6,065 nt of DNA, from sequence record NC_007823.1. One strand, written 5' to 3'. The position numbers were made by a program, and so were the translations under genes. The notes under the pieces are model-generated. The model was not told the DNA's origin. It ran no database searches and saw only the letters and a list, made by a program, of their open reading frames with translations. The first letter of the stretch is position 1. Each line of letters begins with the position of its first letter. Below, piece by piece: positions 1-6,065 of this stretch. This DNA comes from Escherichia phage NC28.

Positions 1-26
1 TTGTTGACTTCTCCCAATCCCTTATG

Positions 27-59
27 AGACTCTTACTTCAACGAATGAAGTAGGAGTCT
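27..59 (+). terminator. Hairpin just downstream of gene H (H stop is at the window end, assuming a circular genome): 13-bp stem (27-39 / 47-59, one G-U pair), 7-nt loop, followed by TCTTTAT. Likely the post-H (TH-like) terminator or mRNA-stabilising hairpin.
   Basis: Read directly: 5' arm AGACTCTTACTTC (27-39), loop AACGAAT (40-46), 3' arm GAAGTAGGAGTCT (47-59). The 3' arm contains AGGAG (52-56), the SD of the ORF starting at 65. The U-tract is weak. Confidence 0.5.
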
Positions 60-64
60 TTATC

Positions 65-433
65 ATGAAGCCCGCTCACCGCTTGACTCATCCGATTCTC
101 GGTTCTTGGTTGTTTAAGTGCCCTGTTTATATCAGTTATGAGCACCTTCATCATGGTCGTCTCATTAAGGTTCGCGCTGTTCGTGATTTATCCCCTCGCC
201 AGCAGCTTATCGCTAACCCTAAAAATTGTTTTGACGTTGTTATTGCTGTGATTGACGTTACTTATTGCTCTGTCACTTATTTTGATTATGAGGCTGAGGA
301 ATATGCCGAGTGTGATTCAGAAACTATGGATAATATCCTTGCTTATGTTAACTCTCCTCACTCCCTTCGCTCTGAGGAGGATTCATCCGTTGATGTTGAC
401 GATATGGCGTGGCTTTATGAAATTGCGGAGTAA
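65..433 (+). CDS. Hypothetical acidic protein (122 aa) in the H-A intergenic region; no recognisable family.
   Basis: ATG at 65 with AGGAG (52-56) 8 nt upstream. T-rich third codon positions match the phage's other genes. C-terminal half is strongly acidic (EEDSSVDVDDMAWLYEIAE tail). Stop TAA at 431-433 lies 3 nt before the next ATG. Confidence 0.5.
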   Translation: MKPAHRLTHPILGSWLFKCPVYISYEHLHHGRLIKVRAVRDLSPRQQLIANPKNCFDVVIAVIDVTYCSVTYFDYEAEEYAECDSETMDNILAYVNSPHSLRSEEDSSVDVDDMAWLYEIAE

Positions 434-436
434 ATC

Positions 437-526
437 ATGGAAACTGTTGTCGGGAAATTTATTGCTTTGGCTGTTGTTGCTCTTATGCTGTATGGAATTG
501 CCCGTTTAATTCGGAGGTTCCCGTGA
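437..526 (+). CDS. Hypothetical small hydrophobic peptide (29 aa, METVVGKFIALAVVALMLYGIARLIRRFP): one predicted transmembrane helix with a basic C-terminus.
   Basis: ATG at 437 with GGAG (427-430) 6 nt upstream. Hand translation gives an uninterrupted hydrophobic stretch then RLIRRFP; stop TGA at 524-526. Too short to appear in the supplied ORF track. Confidence 0.38.
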   Translation: METVVGKFIALAVVALMLYGIARLIRRFP

Positions 527-699
527 AATACTTTAGTCTTGTGGATGAACATTATGCTTATTGCCCTGACACGCGGATTCTGCATATCACTCGCAGTCGT
601 GTTTCTGACCCTCGTTATGAGCGTCGTTTTCTTACTGATGAGGAGCATTTTGAGCTTCTGGATTGGTTGAAAAGCCGTCTGACTTACGTTAATTCTTGA
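523..699 (+). CDS. Hypothetical 58-aa protein with GTG start overlapping the ORF2 stop (GTGA), translation VKYFSLVDEHYAYCPDTRILHITRSRVSDPRYERRFLTDEEHFELLDWLKSRLTYVNS.
   Basis: GGAGG (513-517) lies 5 nt upstream of GTG 523. Open frame to TGA 697-699 verified codon by codon. No in-frame ATG, so the start is uncertain. Confidence 0.33.
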   Translation: MKYFSLVDEHYAYCPDTRILHITRSRVSDPRYERRFLTDEEHFELLDWLKSRLTYVNS

Positions 700-725
700 C
701 AATCTTCTGAAATACCCTCTATATT
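696..725 (+). promoter_or_regulatory. Candidate sigma70 promoter for gene A (PA-like): -35 TTGACA (696-701), -10 TATATT (720-725), 18-nt spacer.
   Basis: Perfect -35 hexamer and a 5/6 -10 read directly, positioned about 35 nt upstream of the A start codon, analogous to phiX174 PA in the H-A intergenic region. The ORF3 stop TGA sits inside the -35 hexamer. Confidence 0.45.
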
Positions 726-755
726 GCCCTCATAGGTTCACTACGAGGGCTTTTT
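726..755 (+). terminator. Terminator-like or leader hairpin: GCCCTC (726-731) / GAGGGC (745-750) stem, 13-nt loop, followed by TTTTT (751-755), immediately before the gene A ATG.
   Basis: Read directly. The 3' arm GAGGG (745-749) is also the likely SD of gene A, 9 nt before ATG 759. Could terminate transcripts coming from the upstream cassette and/or modulate A translation. Confidence 0.4.
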
Positions 756-2476: not shown

Positions 2477-2518
2477 GTTGTTTCAAAGTTATCTACCCAT
2501 AAGTGTTAGGAGTATGTT

Positions 2519-2977
2519 ATGTCTAATCTTGTTGCTACTGATGTAAATTTCGCTACTTCTGTTGCCGCTCTGAAGATGCTTCAGTCTTCTGCTGTTCTGG
2601 ATATTACTGAGGAGGATTTCGACTTCCTGACTGGTGATAAAATTTGGATTGCTACTGACCGCAACCGTGCGCGTCGTTGTGTAGAGGCTTGTGTTTATGG
2701 AACGCTGGACTTTGTTGGATACCCTCGCTTTCCTGCTCCTGTTGAGTTTATTGCTGCCGTCATTGCTTATTATGTTCATCCCGTCAACATTCAGACGGCC
2801 TGCCTCATCATGGAAGGCGCTGAGTTTACGGAAAACATTGTTAATGGTGTCGAGCGTCCGGTTAAAGCCGCTGAGCTCTTCGCGTACACCCTGCGTGTTA
2901 AAGCCGGACTCAAAGAGACGGTTTTGAATGCTGAAGAGAATGCTCGCCAAAAACTTCGTGCTTCTGGAGTAATGTAA
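2519..2977 (+). CDS. D: External scaffolding protein D (152 aa).
   Basis: AGGAG (2508-2512) 6 nt before ATG 2519. Protein is near-identical over long stretches to recalled phiX174 D (…DFDFLTxxKxWIATDRxRARRCVEACVYGTLDFVGYPRFPAPVEFIAAVIAYYVHPVNIQTACLIMEGAEFTENI…). Confidence 0.96.
   Translation: MSNLVATDVNFATSVAALKMLQSSAVLDITEEDFDFLTGDKIWIATDRNRARRCVEACVYGTLDFVGYPRFPAPVEFIAAVIAYYVHPVNIQTACLIMEGAEFTENIVNGVERPVKAAELFAYTLRVKAGLKETVLNAEENARQKLRASGVM
2697..2927 (+). CDS. E: Lysis protein E (76 aa), embedded in gene D in the +1 frame; N-terminal transmembrane domain.
   Basis: ATG 2697 with GAGG (2684-2687) 9 nt upstream. MERWTLLDTLAFLLLLSLLLPSLLIMFIPSTFRRPASSWKALSLRKTLLM... matches recalled phiX174 E (MVRWTLWDTLAFLLLLSLLLPSLLIMFIPSTFKRPVSSWKALNLRKTLLM...). 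The track's 2691 start is a GTG two codons upstream. Confidence 0.87.
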   Translation: MERWTLLDTLAFLLLLSLLLPSLLIMFIPSTFRRPASSWKALSLRKTLLMVSSVRLKPLSSSRTPCVLKPDSKRRF

Positions 2978-2978
2978 T

Positions 2979-3053
2979 ATGAAAAAGGCTCGTCGCTCTC
3001 CTTCTCGTAAAAAAGGTGCTCGCCTCTGGTATGTAGGCGGTTCTCAGTTTTAA
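2979..3053 (+). CDS. J: Small basic DNA-binding/packaging protein J (24 aa: MKKARRSPSRKKGARLWYVGGSQF).
   Basis: ATG 2979 two nt after the D stop; GGAG (2966-2969) 9 nt upstream. Basic composition and the C-terminal GARLWYVGG motif match recalled phiX174 J (…GARLWYVGGQQF). Short length fits G4/alpha3-type J. Confidence 0.85.
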   Translation: MKKARRSPSRKKGARLWYVGGSQF

Positions 3054-3057
3054 TTAT

Positions 3058-3071
3058 GGGCCTTCGGGCCC
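3058..3071 (+). terminator. J-F intergenic GC hairpin GGGCC-TTCG-GGCCC followed by TTT; terminator-like (TJ) or mRNA-stabilising stem-loop.
   Basis: Perfect 5-bp GC stem with TTCG tetraloop read directly, followed by TTTAAGGA, whose AAGGA (3075-3079) is the SD for F at 3086. Confidence 0.55.
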
Positions 3072-3085
3072 TTTAAGGAAATCCA

Positions 3086-4369
3086 ATGTCAAACGTGCAA
3101 ACTTCCGCAGAACGTATTCCGCATGACCTTTCCCATCTGGTTTTTGATGCTGGCAAGATTGGTCGTTTAAAGGTTGTTTCTTGGACTCCTGTTGTTGCAG
3201 GTGATTCTTTTGAGCTTGATATGATTGGCGCAATTCGCCTTTCTCCGCTTCGTCGTGGTTTGGCTGTTGATAGCCGCGTTGACTTGTTTACTTTCTATGT
3301 TCCTCATCGTCATGTTTATGGTGAGCAATGGATTGATTTTATGAAAGCAGGTGTTGATGCTGCTCCGCTTGCACCTGTTACTTGTTCGCGTGGTTGGGAT
3401 AGCGCCCAGTATTTGGCTACAATTCCGTCCTCTAACCTGAAGGTTCCTAAGTTCCTTCATCAAGGTTATTTGAATATTTATAATAACTATTTTAAAGCTC
3501 CGTGGATGGATGATTTAACTTATGCCAATCCGTCTAATATGGAAGGTGAAGACGTTCGTTTTGGTGTTCGTGCGTGTAACTTGAAAACTATTTGGACTGC
3601 CCCACTTCCGCCGGACACTGAGACTTCTCATTCTATGGAGACTGAGACTAACTCTATTGATATCATGGGCCTTCAGGCCGCTTATGCTCAGCTTCATACT
3701 GAGCAGGAACGTGATTATTTCATGACGCGTTATCGTGATATTGTTAATGAATTTGGTGGTAGTACTTCTTATGATGCGGATAATCGCCCTCTTCTGGTTA
3801 TGCACTCTGAGTTTTGGGCTTCAGGCTATGACGTCGACGGCACCGACCAAAGTTCTCTCGGTCAGTTCTCTGGACGTGTACAGCAGACCTTTAAGCATTC
3901 AGTACCGCGATTCTTCTGCCCTGAGCATGGCACTATGTTCACACTCGCATTGGTCCGCTTCCCGCCGACCCATGAGATGGAGATGCATTACTTAGTTGGC
4001 AAGGAAGATTTAACCTATACTGATTTGGCTTGTGACCCAGCTCTGATGGCCAACCTCCCTCCTCGTGAGGTTAATATGTCTCAGTTCTTCCATTCTGGAA
4101 GTGCTAGTGCTAAGTTTAAGATTGCTGAAGGTCAATGGTATCGTATGCAGCCTGACCGTGTTGCTTTGCCGTATAACTATCTTGATGGTTTTCCGTTCTA
4201 TAGTGCGATTCCATCTGATGATATTAATCATCGTGTTCTGGTTAATACTGATAACTACGATGAGGTTTTCCAGTCTATGCAGCTTGCGCACTGGAATATG
4301 CAGACCAAGTTTAACTGCACCATTTATCGTAATATGCCGACCACTCGCGACTCTATTATGACCTCTTGA
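3086..4369 (+). CDS. F: Major capsid protein F (427 aa).
   Basis: Same length as phiX174 F and extensive identity to the recalled sequence (MSNxQTxAERxPHDLSHL…, FTFYVPHRHVYGEQWI, GYLNIYNNYFKAPWM, WTAPLPP, SIDIMGLQAAYA, SYDADNRPLLVM, ASGYDVDGTDQxSLGQFSGRVQQT, LPTTRDSIMTS). Confidence 0.97.
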   Translation: MSNVQTSAERIPHDLSHLVFDAGKIGRLKVVSWTPVVAGDSFELDMIGAIRLSPLRRGLAVDSRVDLFTFYVPHRHVYGEQWIDFMKAGVDAAPLAPVTCSRGWDSAQYLATIPSSNLKVPKFLHQGYLNIYNNYFKAPWMDDLTYANPSNMEGEDVRFGVRACNLKTIWTAPLPPDTETSHSMETETNSIDIMGLQAAYAQLHTEQERDYFMTRYRDIVNEFGGSTSYDADNRPLLVMHSEFWASGYDVDGTDQSSLGQFSGRVQQTFKHSVPRFFCPEHGTMFTLALVRFPPTHEMEMHYLVGKEDLTYTDLACDPALMANLPPREVNMSQFFHSGSASAKFKIAEGQWYRMQPDRVALPYNYLDGFPFYSAIPSDDINHRVLVNTDNYDEVFQSMQLAHWNMQTKFNCTIYRNMPTTRDSIMTS

Positions 4370-4375
4370 TTATGT

Positions 4376-4389
4376 GGGCCTTCGGGCCC
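4376..4389 (+). terminator. F-G intergenic GC hairpin GGGCC-TTCG-GGCCC, second copy of the J-F hairpin; terminator-like (TF).
   Basis: Identical stem-loop to 3058-3071, with similar flanks (TTATG upstream, C(C)TTTAAGGA downstream); the downstream AAGGA serves as the SD for G. Confidence 0.55.
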
Positions 4390-4406
4390 CTTTAAGGATG
4401 TTGATT

Positions 4407-4952
4407 ATGTTTCAAGTTTATGTATCTAAGCATGTTGCCCCGTTCACTTCTAAGAACCGTGCTTTTTCTATTGCTCCCGCTGCTAATCCGCAGGTTGTTA
4501 ACTCTGGTGAGATTGTTGCAGGTCGTTCTACGTTTCGTATTGCTTCTTCTATTGCTTCCGCTGTTAATGGTAGTGGTTTCGCTTTTGTTCAGATGATGGA
4601 CCCTAACTCTCCTGATTCTCAGCAGGTTTTCTCTGTTGCTGCTTCTCTGTCCTTTAGTGTTGATTCGAATTACATTCCTTGTGTTGTTCGTTTTGAGGAT
4701 AACGCTGCTCAGCCTACTGATTTTGATATTGCGACCGCTGATTTTATTCCGGTTGAGGTTTCTGCTATTTCTCCTCGTGCGCTTAGTGTTCGCGATTGTG
4801 TTACCGTTGATGTTAAGCCTCGCACTCAAGGCAATAATGTTTTTGTTGGTGTTGTTTTCTTTTCTGCTTCTGCTAATGCCGGTAATGTCACTGGTGTCGT
4901 TTCGATGGCTCAGGTTGACCATGAAGTTACAGCTTTGCAGCCGCTTAAATAA
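4407..4952 (+). CDS. G: Major spike protein G (181 aa).
   Basis: ATG 4407 (MFQVYVSKH...) with AAGGA (4394-4398) 8 nt upstream. Start MFQ and motifs CVVRFE, DCVTVDV-PRT-GNNV-VG and C-terminal LQPLK match recalled phiX174 G. The track's 4374 start is a GTG inside the hairpin; the in-frame ATG at 4398 is too close to the SD. Confidence 0.9.
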   Translation: MFQVYVSKHVAPFTSKNRAFSIAPAANPQVVNSGEIVAGRSTFRIASSIASAVNGSGFAFVQMMDPNSPDSQQVFSVAASLSFSVDSNYIPCVVRFEDNAAQPTDFDIATADFIPVEVSAISPRALSVRDCVTVDVKPRTQGNNVFVGVVFFSASANAGNVTGVVSMAQVDHEVTALQPLK

Positions 4953-5087
4953 AAGGCCACCGCACTCCTGGTTAGATGCCTGCCCAGTGTAGGGTGGACC
5001 GAGCCGTACGGAGATACCCGAGAAACTAGGAACGCGGAAGGCGTTAGCCGCCTTCCCTCCTGCTAAGCCCAAAGGAGACTTTCAGCT
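4953..5087 (+). promoter_or_regulatory. 135-nt structured G-H intergenic region; candidate terminator after G and/or complementary (-) strand origin (primase-dependent ssi). Strong hairpin at 5036-5056 (GGAAGGCG-TTAGC-CGCCTTCC); possible imperfect hairpin 4957-4997; palindrome CCGTACGG at 5004-5011.
   Basis: Hairpins read directly. The spacer is far longer than a terminator plus RBS needs, while the F-G spacer is only 37 nt. My recollection is that in G4 the (-) strand origin is in F-G and in alpha3/St-1/phiK it is in G-H. AAGGAG (5072-5077) is the SD for H. Confidence 0.35.
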
Positions 5088-6065
5088 ATGTTAGGTGCCG
5101 TTGTAGGTGGTATTGTTTCAGCCTTAGCTGGTGGAGCAGCTTCTAAGCTATTTGGTGGCAAGCCTGCCGCTCAAGCCGCCACTGAGTCCTCTGGCCTTTC
5201 TAATGGTCAAGGTGTTATTGGTATGGACCAAGATGCTGGTATTCAGTCAGCTATTCAGGGTTCGAATGTTCCAAATGGTCAGATTCCTGCCCCTACCCAG
5301 ACTGGTGGCGTTATGTCTGACGCTAAAAATATGATTAAGAATGCTGGTAAAGATTTGCTTGATGGTGTTATGACCGCTGGAAGTGACCGCATTAAGCAGG
5401 CATTGGTTGATAAATTGAGTGGTAATAATGCAAAACGACAAGGACAAGCAACCCGTGATTACTTGGCTTCGGCCTTCCCTGAGCTCAACCCGTGGGAACG
5501 TTCTGGAGCTGGTGCTTCCGGTGCCGGATTGGAATCTTCCGGTCAGGACCAACAAAAAGAGTTGATGCGTATGCAGCTGGATAACCAGAAAGATATTGCA
5601 AAGATGCAGATGGATAACAATTTGCAGATTGCTGGTATTCAGTCCGCTACATCTCGTCAGAATACTAAGGACACTGTTTATGCTCAGAATGAAATGCTTC
5701 AGTACAATCAGCGTGAGTCGCAGGCACGCGTTGAATCTATCCTCGCCAACACTAACCTTACGGATAAGCAGGCTACCCATGAAATCATGAGAATGGCTCT
5801 TACCCGTGCTCAGGAAACTGGTCAGCATTTGACTAACTCTCAGATTATGGCATTGGAGAAAAAGGTTTATGCAGAAATCGGAAAAATTAATCAAGATACT
5901 CAAAACGCTCGCTATGGTAGTTCTCAGGTTACTGCTGCGGCGAAAGATGTTACGAATATGATTACTGATGCCACCTCTGGTGCTGCTGATTGGGTTTCCC
6001 AGCAATGGAATTCCCTCTTTAAGGATGGTAAGTCTAATGGTATTCCCCTCAATACCAGAAAATAA
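5088..6065 (+). CDS. H: Minor spike / DNA pilot protein H (325 aa).
   Basis: AAGGAG (5072-5077) 10 nt before ATG 5088. Glycine-rich N-terminus (MLGAVVGGIVSALAGGAASKLFGG), then GIQSAIQGSNVPN, TRDYLAxAFPELNxWER, QKELxxMQLDNQK, IAGIQSATSRQNTKDxVYAQNEML, ENTNL, QNxRYGSS; C-terminal ...FKDGKSNGI...RK. All match recalled phiX174 H. Stop TAA is the last 3 nt of the window. Confidence 0.95.
   Translation: MLGAVVGGIVSALAGGAASKLFGGKPAAQAATESSGLSNGQGVIGMDQDAGIQSAIQGSNVPNGQIPAPTQTGGVMSDAKNMIKNAGKDLLDGVMTAGSDRIKQALVDKLSGNNAKRQGQATRDYLASAFPELNPWERSGAGASGAGLESSGQDQQKELMRMQLDNQKDIAKMQMDNNLQIAGIQSATSRQNTKDTVYAQNEMLQYNQRESQARVESILANTNLTDKQATHEIMRMALTRAQETGQHLTNSQIMALEKKVYAEIGKINQDTQNARYGSSQVTAAAKDVTNMITDATSGAADWVSQQWNSLFKDGKSNGIPLNTRK

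Follow-up and report, generated by a model that had tools for sequence, protein, structure and literature searches.

What is encoded between the end of gene H and the start of gene A in the α3-like microviruses, and what might the product do? We examined this question in Escherichia phage NC28 (NC_007823.1), whose whole 6,065-nt sequence, hereafter called the window, is a complete circular genome of an α3-like microvirus (Bullavirinae, genus Alphatrevirus), written from just past the gene H stop codon. The gene H stop codon and the gene A start codon are separated by 758 nt, and the open reading frame under study (ORF1) lies inside this stretch. As the preliminary description of this DNA had stated, ORF1 is encoded outside the core genes; it is a separate frame between H and A and belongs to none of the 11 canonical genes. 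The substitution pattern, the conservation of the frame, and a confident structural model show that ORF1 is a genuine, selectively constrained protein-coding gene. The parts of the gene are as follows.

65..433, + strand: ORF1 coding sequence (CDS), from the ATG at 65 to the TAA at 431-433; 122 aa plus stop
65..262, + strand: part coding for the N-lobe, residues 1-66; four β-strands, a short helix, and a fifth strand; basic and nearly invariant
263..433, + strand: part coding for the C-lobe, residues 67-122; acidic, with 15-19 D/E against 1-5 K/R
313..384, + strand: variable surface island, approximately codons 84-107; comprises the exposed side of helix 85-95 and the loop after it

ORF1 was open over its full length in 11 of the 13 GenBank relatives, contained no internal indels in 11 genomes, and was open in all environmental contigs that were recovered by using the neighboring ORF3 as an anchor. 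Altogether, 29 intact copies were obtained, 20 of which were distinct. The two broken copies are single-base deletions causing frameshifts in records of laboratory phages, α3 (X60322, the 1985/1992 sequence) and St-1. The resequenced α3 record (DQ085810.2) carries an intact ORF1, and the St-1 deletion lies within a T-run with an undecayed frame downstream. Either these deletions are errors of sequencing or they arose recently in the laboratory; if genuine, they hint at dispensability on laboratory hosts.

The variable sites of ORF1 were distributed over codon positions 1, 2, and 3 as 44, 34, and 98 (15, 5, and 53 in the N-terminal half), and the variable sites of the non-ORF flanks showed no codon periodicity. 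The ratio of nonsynonymous to synonymous divergence (dN/dS), calculated by the Nei-Gojobori method, was 0.18 for ORF1 (0.06 for the N-terminal half and 0.32 for the C-terminal half), whereas the same DNA read in its two other frames gave 1.2 and 1.8; a counting approach gave 0.08 for the N-lobe. In the same genomes, the ratio was 0.05 for A, 0.05 for C, 0.065 for D, 0.08 for J, 0.115 for H, 0.13 for F, and 0.36 for G, which places ORF1 between H and F on one side and G on the other. In the N-terminal half, synonymous divergence (dS) was high (0.68) and nonsynonymous divergence (dN) was low, thereby indicating that selection acts on the ORF1 protein and not on a DNA element. In addition, the GC content of ORF1 (0.44) and its third-position T content (0.55) matched those of the core genes, and this core-like codon composition marks ORF1 as a long-resident gene.

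The composition of the product agreed closely with the preliminary count of about 21 acidic against 10 basic residues in 122 aa. We counted 20 D+E, 10 K+R, and 6 His, with an isoelectric point (pI) of 4.88 and a net charge of -10. The description of ORF1 as strongly acidic was correct for the C-terminal half but not for the whole protein, since the pI of approximately 4.9 is near that of the D (5.04) and G (5.20) proteins of the same phage and the N-terminal half is basic. Residues 61-122, which end with the tail EEDSSVDVDDMAWLYEIAE (residues 104-122), hold 17 of the 20 acidic residues and 1 K/R, whereas residues 1-60 have 3 D/E against 9 K/R. The C-terminal half consists of 27% D/E and has a net charge of about -16. 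Two residues of the window ORF1, R24S and E62V, deviate at positions that are at least 90% conserved across the family.

An AlphaFold2 model of ORF1, computed from a 19-sequence ORF1 alignment, was β-rich and confident, with a mean predicted local distance difference test score (pLDDT) of 88.9 and a predicted template modeling score (pTM) of 0.80. The independently made BFVD model of the ortholog from phage Lilleven superposed on it with a template modeling score (TM) of 0.98. The model places strands at residues 3-9, 13-17, 21-28, 33-40, 57-64, 69-73, 78-82, 104-110, and 118-121 and helices at 44-49 and 85-95. A disordered, nonconserved polypeptide, the other outcome that the preliminary description held would speak against it, is at odds with this pLDDT and with the dN/dS of 0.18. 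The N-lobe carries the invariant motif RDLxPRxxLxANPKNC and, across the family, 3 D/E against 9-11 K/R, and the C-lobe ends with the conserved strand DDMxWLYEIAE. The family therefore shows a charge dipole (about +6 to +8 for the N-lobe and about -13 to -18 for the C-lobe), which is kept in every allele type, including P0020, a homolog with 36% identity. About a dozen acidic positions are conserved, among them D74, E78, E79, E105, D106, D112, D113, and E119, and E78, E79, E86, E105, D106, and D112 showed synonymous change only (binomial P of 0.001 to 0.04). The dipole kept in all allele types and these codon patterns show that the acidity of ORF1 is a selected feature. Two structural ideas were considered and rejected. 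A Cys/His metal site (H5, C19, C55, and H29/H30) does not hold in P0020, in which C19 is Arg and the His pair is missing. A free acidic C-terminal tail as in single-stranded DNA (ssDNA)-binding protein (SSB) does not agree with the model, in which residues 104-121 form β-strands of the domain.

We looked for relatives of ORF1 by sequence, profile, and structure. There was no Pfam family at E < 0.1, microvirus families included (Frankia_peptide at E = 0.18 is noise), nothing significant in PHROGs (a "transcriptional repressor" match at E = 0.24 is noise), and nothing significant in the NCBIfam scan. The PADLOC defense profiles gave no matches for ORF1, ORF2, ORF3, or P0020, and neither phmmer nor the family profile matched ORF1 to any PDB chain. 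The structure search on the AlphaFold model that the preliminary description had proposed was carried out, and the predicted fold had no match among solved structures. An exhaustive profile search of 1.84 billion representatives returned three ORF1 clusters only, all of them microvirus proteins. The homologs all lay on microvirus-sized (~6-kb) or shorter contigs, and none was found in 72,556 plasmids or in 185,579 species genomes. On the related contigs, precomputed Pfam assignments recognized the C, D, F, G, H, and A products, and ORF1 and ORF3 remained without a family. ORF1 was also not homologous to the 11 Bullavirinae proteins (A, A*, B, C, D, E, F, G, H, J, and K). It is thus restricted to Alphatrevirus-like contigs and was present in every sampled member of the genus. 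The closest counterparts are QBZ71502.1 of Lilleven (MK629527; UniProt A0A4D6DYX2), the ortholog whose predicted fold is the same, and the orthologs in α3, φK, St-1, WA13, WA45, ID21, ID32, ID62, NC3, NC29, and NC35; with Lilleven included, these show 70-96% amino acid identity and occupy the same place, between H and ORF2/ORF3/A, and none has an assigned function. Judged from the model, the ORF1 product is a compact, β-rich cytoplasmic protein that is an orphan in both sequence and fold. We consider it a lineage-specific phage accessory protein, of which a passing mention in Rokyta et al. 2006 or Kodaira et al. 1992 is possible.

The divergence of ORF1 is concentrated in its C-lobe, which occurs as discrete allele types with 62-73% nucleotide identity between types.

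C-lobe type A: the window, WA13, WA45, MG945254, and ID62
C-lobe type B: ID21, ID32, and φK
C-lobe type C: NC35, NC3, α3, St-1, and Lilleven
C-lobe type D: NC29

An additional type with a two-codon deletion was found in metagenomes. Within the variable island, nucleotide identity between allele types was 25-71% against 83-100% in the flanks, and sliding-window dN/dS reached 0.7-0.9. Positions 88, 91, and 92 were always hydrophobic, and positions 89, 90, 93, 94, and 96 each took 4-7 residue types; helix 85-95 is amphipathic, with a buried face that is kept and an exposed face that drifts. A count in the style of single-likelihood ancestor counting (SLAC) over the 29 copies found no codon of ORF1 with a significant nonsynonymous excess. 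The initial interpretation of the island as the product of an arms race was reduced for this reason to that of a near-neutral surface patch combined with recombining alleles.

Recombination is evident from the distribution of the alleles. The structural genes divide the genus into two deep subclades ({WA13-like} and {α3, St-1, φK, Lilleven}) with approximately 67% identity in F and 54% in G, and types B and C were each present in both subclades. Gene A, ORF2/3, and the N-terminal half of ORF1 showed 80-100% identity throughout, identity between the two subclades was 84-100% in A, C, and the H-A module, and fixed intersubclade differences were limited to approximately 2500-5750, that is, to genes D to H. 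These results indicate that the genus is a mosaic in which ORF1 alleles reassort against the structural block. Of 42 alignment columns tracking the ORF1 allele type genome-wide, 35 were in the C-lobe, 6 in the rest of ORF1 or its leader, and 1 in gene A; no phage gene covarying with the variable face was found among the genome-wide columns. P0020, the most divergent allele (129 aa), is encoded at positions 820-1209 of contig L015 (Logan SRR20337160) and keeps 34 invariant residues. The flanks of this contig (H, ORF2, ORF3, and A) are approximately 85-90% identical to the window around an ORF1 that is 36% identical. The dS of ORF1 in L015 was 1.58, with a saturated N-lobe, against 0.57-0.83 in H, ORF2, ORF3, and A, which argues that P0020 is an older allele imported by recombination. 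Its saturated synonymous divergence implies that there must be microvirus lineages, as yet unsampled, whose ORF1 alleles differ strongly from those seen here; no further P0020-like alleles were found in IMG/VR. In addition, a 154-aa variant of ORF1 was observed at positions 4122-4586 of L016 and 689-1153 of L017 (Logan ERR1302523 / ERR1302443); it has a 34-residue acidic insertion, PLTSSEIAVINSAICDLDDSIEEVESLVASVS, directly past the start codon and a two-codon deletion in the variable loop.

The sequences on both sides of ORF1 contain the elements that would govern its expression, together with two further frames.

22..68, + strand: RNA hairpin just 3' of the gene H stop codon; the 3' arm holds the ORF1 Shine-Dalgarno sequence, and a U-rich run and then the ATG follow
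52..56, + strand: Shine-Dalgarno sequence AGGAG, 8 nt 5' of the ORF1 ATG; GGAG is invariant in 13 genomes
437..526, + strand: ORF2, a 29-aa hydrophobic peptide, METVVGKFIALAVVALMLYGIARLIRRFP, with one transmembrane-like helix and a basic tail
523..699, + strand: ORF3, 58 aa; the GTG start shares 4 nt (GTGA) with the end of ORF2
696..725, + strand: σ70-type promoter, the gene A promoter (pA); TTGACA, 18 nt, TATATT; conserved in relatives
726..751, + strand: hairpin followed by TTTTT, abutting the promoter and 5' of the gene A ATG at 759; minimum free energy (MFE) of -14.7 kcal/mol, z = -3.1

The hairpin at 22-68 has an MFE of -21.7 kcal/mol (z = -5.3), a stability that none of 200 shuffled sequences reached, and its sequence is conserved in 12 relatives, among which no compensatory changes supporting it by covariation were seen. 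It may act as an attenuator or slow translation by occluding the ribosome-binding site. A σ70 consensus scan of the window found no promoter for ORF1 between H and ORF1; the best match in the window, and the only strong one, was the promoter at 696-725 (11 of 12 consensus positions). This promoter and the adjoining hairpin (696-751) overlap in the same way as the pA-T_H element of φX174 (bioRxiv 10.1101/2020.03.05.979765). In φX174, T_H halts about 70% of transcription, and about 18% of the current outlasts T_J, T_F, and T_G (bioRxiv 10.1101/2020.03.05.979765). In the viable isolate NC35 (L013), the equivalent pA/T_H element has lost its -10 box, together with the 5' half of the hairpin stem, to a 29-nt deletion. 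Because ORF1, ORF2, and ORF3 have no promoter of their own, we infer that ribosomes reach them on the last part of the late mRNAs that carry H, where attenuation is strongest, past every attenuating terminator, and the arrangement predicts that ORF1 expression would be low and non-early.

ORF2 starts 3 nt past the ORF1 stop codon, with its GGAG ribosome-binding site inside the end of ORF1, and the tight spacing of the three frames suggests translational coupling. ORF2 was present in every relative; its dN/dS of 0.43, against 0.22 for an alternative frame, is ambiguous as to coding. The dN/dS of ORF3 was 0.067, a constraint on par with that of genes A and D, and its start codon is ATG in ID32 and NC29. 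Homologs of ORF3 were found in Alphatrevirus only and are without RefSeq annotation, and its AlphaFold2 model consists of four strands and a C-terminal helix (pLDDT of 79.7). By these substitution patterns, ORF1 and ORF3 are both clearly under purifying selection.

The frames between H and A have been largely passed over in annotation. Over positions 1-760, the closest records to the window are WA45 (92.8% identity) and WA13 (92.6%). The GenBank/RefSeq records of α3, φK, St-1, WA13, WA45, ID21, ID32, ID62, NC3, NC29, and NC35 contain no CDS in the H-A region, and a 2026 description of a new α3-like isolate lists the canonical CDS only. Lilleven (MK629527) is the sole examined record that annotates three "hypothetical proteins" there. 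MG945254 has two misc_features in the region, and M25640, a 1985 fragment of α3, has four marked ribosome-binding sites, one of them equivalent to that of ORF1. The second "hypothetical protein" feature of MG945254 corresponds to an overlapping Leu-rich ORF in the +2 frame (138-509, + strand), which we considered as a gene and rejected; it is open in WA13, WA45, and MG945254, but the window and most relatives have it interrupted, and the dN/dS of this frame is >1. Taken together, ORF1 to ORF3 make up approximately 630 nt of coding sequence between the H stop codon and the pA/T_H element in α3-like phages, so "intergenic region" is a misnomer in this group. The H-A spacer of φX174 spans 88 bp, and the φX174 and G4 groups have a short H-A spacer only. 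ORF1, ORF2, and ORF3 are a compact module of the α3-like microviruses, located between gene H and pA/T_H and not found in φX174-like or G4-like phages. The other genes of the window are as follows.

759-2243: gene A
1805-2158: gene B
to 2319: gene K
to 2476: gene C
2519-2977: gene D
2979-3053: gene J
3086-4369: gene F
4407-4952: gene G
5088-6065: gene H

Elsewhere in the window, the G-H intergenic region (4953-5087, + strand) is G+C-rich with several hairpins and has an ssDNA fold of -22.2 kcal/mol with a z of only -1.6. The primase-dependent complementary-strand origin of α3, St-1, and φK would map to this region. Rfam gave no family matches across the window, the G-H region included. A hairpin, GGGCCTTCGGGCCC, followed by TTTAAGGA (a terminator-like stem plus a Shine-Dalgarno sequence) was found on the + strand before F (3053-3081) and before G (4371-4399), and a third, degenerate copy of the element lies within gene F (3662-3684, + strand).

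What, then, does the ORF1 protein do? We favor, tentatively and with a probability of roughly 0.4, an accessory host-interference factor that binds a conserved host protein handling nucleic acids and uses the acidic sheet as a decoy. ORF1 would be made at a low level from the tail of H transcripts, with its ribosome-binding site partly masked by the hairpin, and would act as a binder, not as an enzyme. Docking onto a conserved partner, most likely a host DNA- or RNA-handling protein, would involve both conserved surfaces, the basic lobe and the acidic sheet, and the acidic face would compete for the nucleic-acid-binding surface of that partner. ORF1 would then work somewhat like a DNA-mimic inhibitor, outside any known mimic family. 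Its role is taken as accessory because φX174 and G4 do without it.

Several considerations weigh against this host-interference role. The mechanism is an inference from the anatomy of the protein, and an integral phage function would account equally well for the near-core constraint and for the occurrence of ORF1 in all genus members sampled. No codon is under significant positive selection and synonymous divergence in the variable island is not above that of the rest of ORF1, which together indicate that the common alleles bear no arms-race signature. The location at the 3' end, with masking by the hairpin, predicts low and non-early expression, which would suit a stoichiometric inhibitor poorly, and the basic N-lobe is atypical of DNA mimics. 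Moreover, the invariant polar residues (H5, R6, K18, R40, D41, N51, K53, N54, C55, D64, D74, E78, R102, and S103) may equally mark a catalytic or ligand-binding site. The most specific form of the host-interference role, in which ORF1 is the first microvirus host-interference or anti-defense protein and has a new fold with a basic anchor lobe and an acidic β-sheet as nucleic acid decoy, is doubtful; its candidate targets would be a restriction or other defense nuclease, uracil-DNA glycosylase, or RecA/SOS functions.

The best placed of the alternatives, although unlikely in itself, is a phage-internal accessory in which the basic N-lobe is the site that binds ssDNA or mRNA of the phage and the acidic lobe is the site of contact with a conserved protein, of the phage or of replication. 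Such a protein would modulate replication, the changeover to ssDNA synthesis, the packaging of a genome that is larger (6.1 kb), or gene expression. It agrees with the occurrence of ORF1 in every genus member sampled and with the dN/dS of 0.06 in the N-lobe, which is at the level of A, C, and D, as well as with the tight coupling to the equally constrained ORF3 and the codon composition of a long-resident gene. The layout of a basic and an acidic lobe also recalls that of single-strand-binding proteins.

A third possibility, which we regard as improbable, is that ORF1, ORF2, and ORF3 form a module acting at the membrane or between phages, in superinfection exclusion, competition during coinfection, or modulation of lysis, with the 29-aa ORF2 peptide as the effector and ORF1 and ORF3 as its cytoplasmic partners or regulators. 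The three frames always occur together, separated by a 3-nt gap and then a 4-nt overlap, and ORF2 is conserved and transmembrane-like; the module lies directly 3' of H, which encodes the DNA-pilot protein, and the discrete C-lobe alleles reassort among lineages, as specificity determinants would. However, the dN/dS of ORF2 (0.43, with 0.22 in the alternative frame) does not establish that it is coding, and no matches to known exclusion or toxin families were obtained. In L015, moreover, ORF2 and ORF3 are approximately 85-90% conserved beside the 36%-identical ORF1, and this conservation beside a replaced ORF1 indicates that the alleles of ORF1 and of its neighbors are not matched to each other.

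The preliminary description had pointed to Ocr-like anti-restriction as the precedent for ORF1. A mimic of the phosphate backbone of B-form DNA of the Ocr/ArdA type, blocking type I restriction-modification or BREX-like enzymes, is very improbable, and the precedent failed on homology, fold, and charge density, with the position of the gene arguing against early expression. The C-lobe does have the expected composition (27% D/E and 1 K/R), its acidic positions are under purifying selection, and some of the acidic residues alternate along the strands, for example, in D74-x-E76-x-E78 and V109-D-V-D-D113. The gene is also non-core, and members of the genus have been grown on K-12 hosts (St-1 and Lilleven records). 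In contrast, Pfam and PDB sequence searches gave no sequence or profile match to anti-restriction families, and ORF1 is β-rich with a basic N-lobe and 20 acidic to 10 basic residues, compared with 34 to 6 in Ocr. ORF1 has no promoter of its own, stands last in its transcription unit, and has its Shine-Dalgarno sequence in a hairpin, and the replicative form would be expected to meet restriction before any phage protein exists.

The remaining proposal, that ORF1 is a chance or decaying ORF or that its conservation reflects an element at the DNA or RNA level, for example, an origin or a packaging signal, can point to missing RefSeq annotation (α3, φK, St-1, WA13, and others) and to the two frameshifted records but is effectively refuted by the dS of 0.68 with low dN, a dN/dS of >1 in the other frames, the lack of indels in 11 genomes, the intact resequenced α3, the confident fold, and the 34 invariant residues shared with a 36%-identical homolog.

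These results bear on a group of phages that is regarded as completely described. The φX174-type phages are textbook examples of "fully annotated" 11-gene genomes, and the H-A stretch of their α3-like members nevertheless has three conserved frames, all of them unnamed, unassigned to any family, and without a recognized fold. At the least, these CDS should be entered in the RefSeq annotations for α3, φK, St-1, WA13, and related phages. If the host target of the favored host-interference role is real, ORF1 would be the first of its kind for Microviridae, a family that the main text of a catalogue of 268 phage anti-defense proteins does not mention. If the decoy mechanism is also correct, the "minimal" φX174-type phages would carry a counter-host module, ORF1 to ORF3, that decades of annotation have missed. 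Alternatively, if ORF1 serves replication or packaging, it would account for the way in which the α3-like lineage departs from φX174 and G4. Because a 6-kb genome can be synthesized or mutated in days, the function of ORF1 is unusually easy to test.

Finally, we compared ORF1 with known systems. There is no sequence precedent beyond the unnamed orthologs, and the nearest functional counterparts are small acidic phage inhibitors. Ocr (T7 gp0.3) forms elongated dimers, is helical, and is acidic across its entire surface, its 116 aa including 34 acidic and 6 basic residues, and it is the first T7 protein made (PMC3439906); its fold (PDB 1S7Z) mimics bent B-form DNA. ORF1 resembles Ocr as a non-core phage protein of approximately 120 aa with a maintained excess of Asp/Glu, but it has no sequence or structural similarity to Ocr, is acidic in the C-lobe only (17 against 1), and is last in its transcription unit. 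Likewise, ORF1 shows neither profile homology to ArdA nor its three-domain fold in Pfam, PDB, and the 72,556 plasmids. Among phage genes more broadly, those of accessory regions (bioRxiv 10.1101/2023.04.06.535777) differ from ORF1, which is present in every sampled genus member, is under near-core constraint, and has no detected positive selection; like them, ORF1 is non-core, lineage restricted, recombining, and possibly dispensable in the laboratory. In its small size and predicted acidic surface, ORF1 is similar to ArdA and to two further inhibitors, UGI and p56. The latter two inhibit uracil-DNA glycosylase, and UGI does so with a β-sheet scaffold that mimics DNA. As a matter of speculation, it would suit an ssDNA phage to inhibit a host enzyme whose substrate is ssDNA or uracil.

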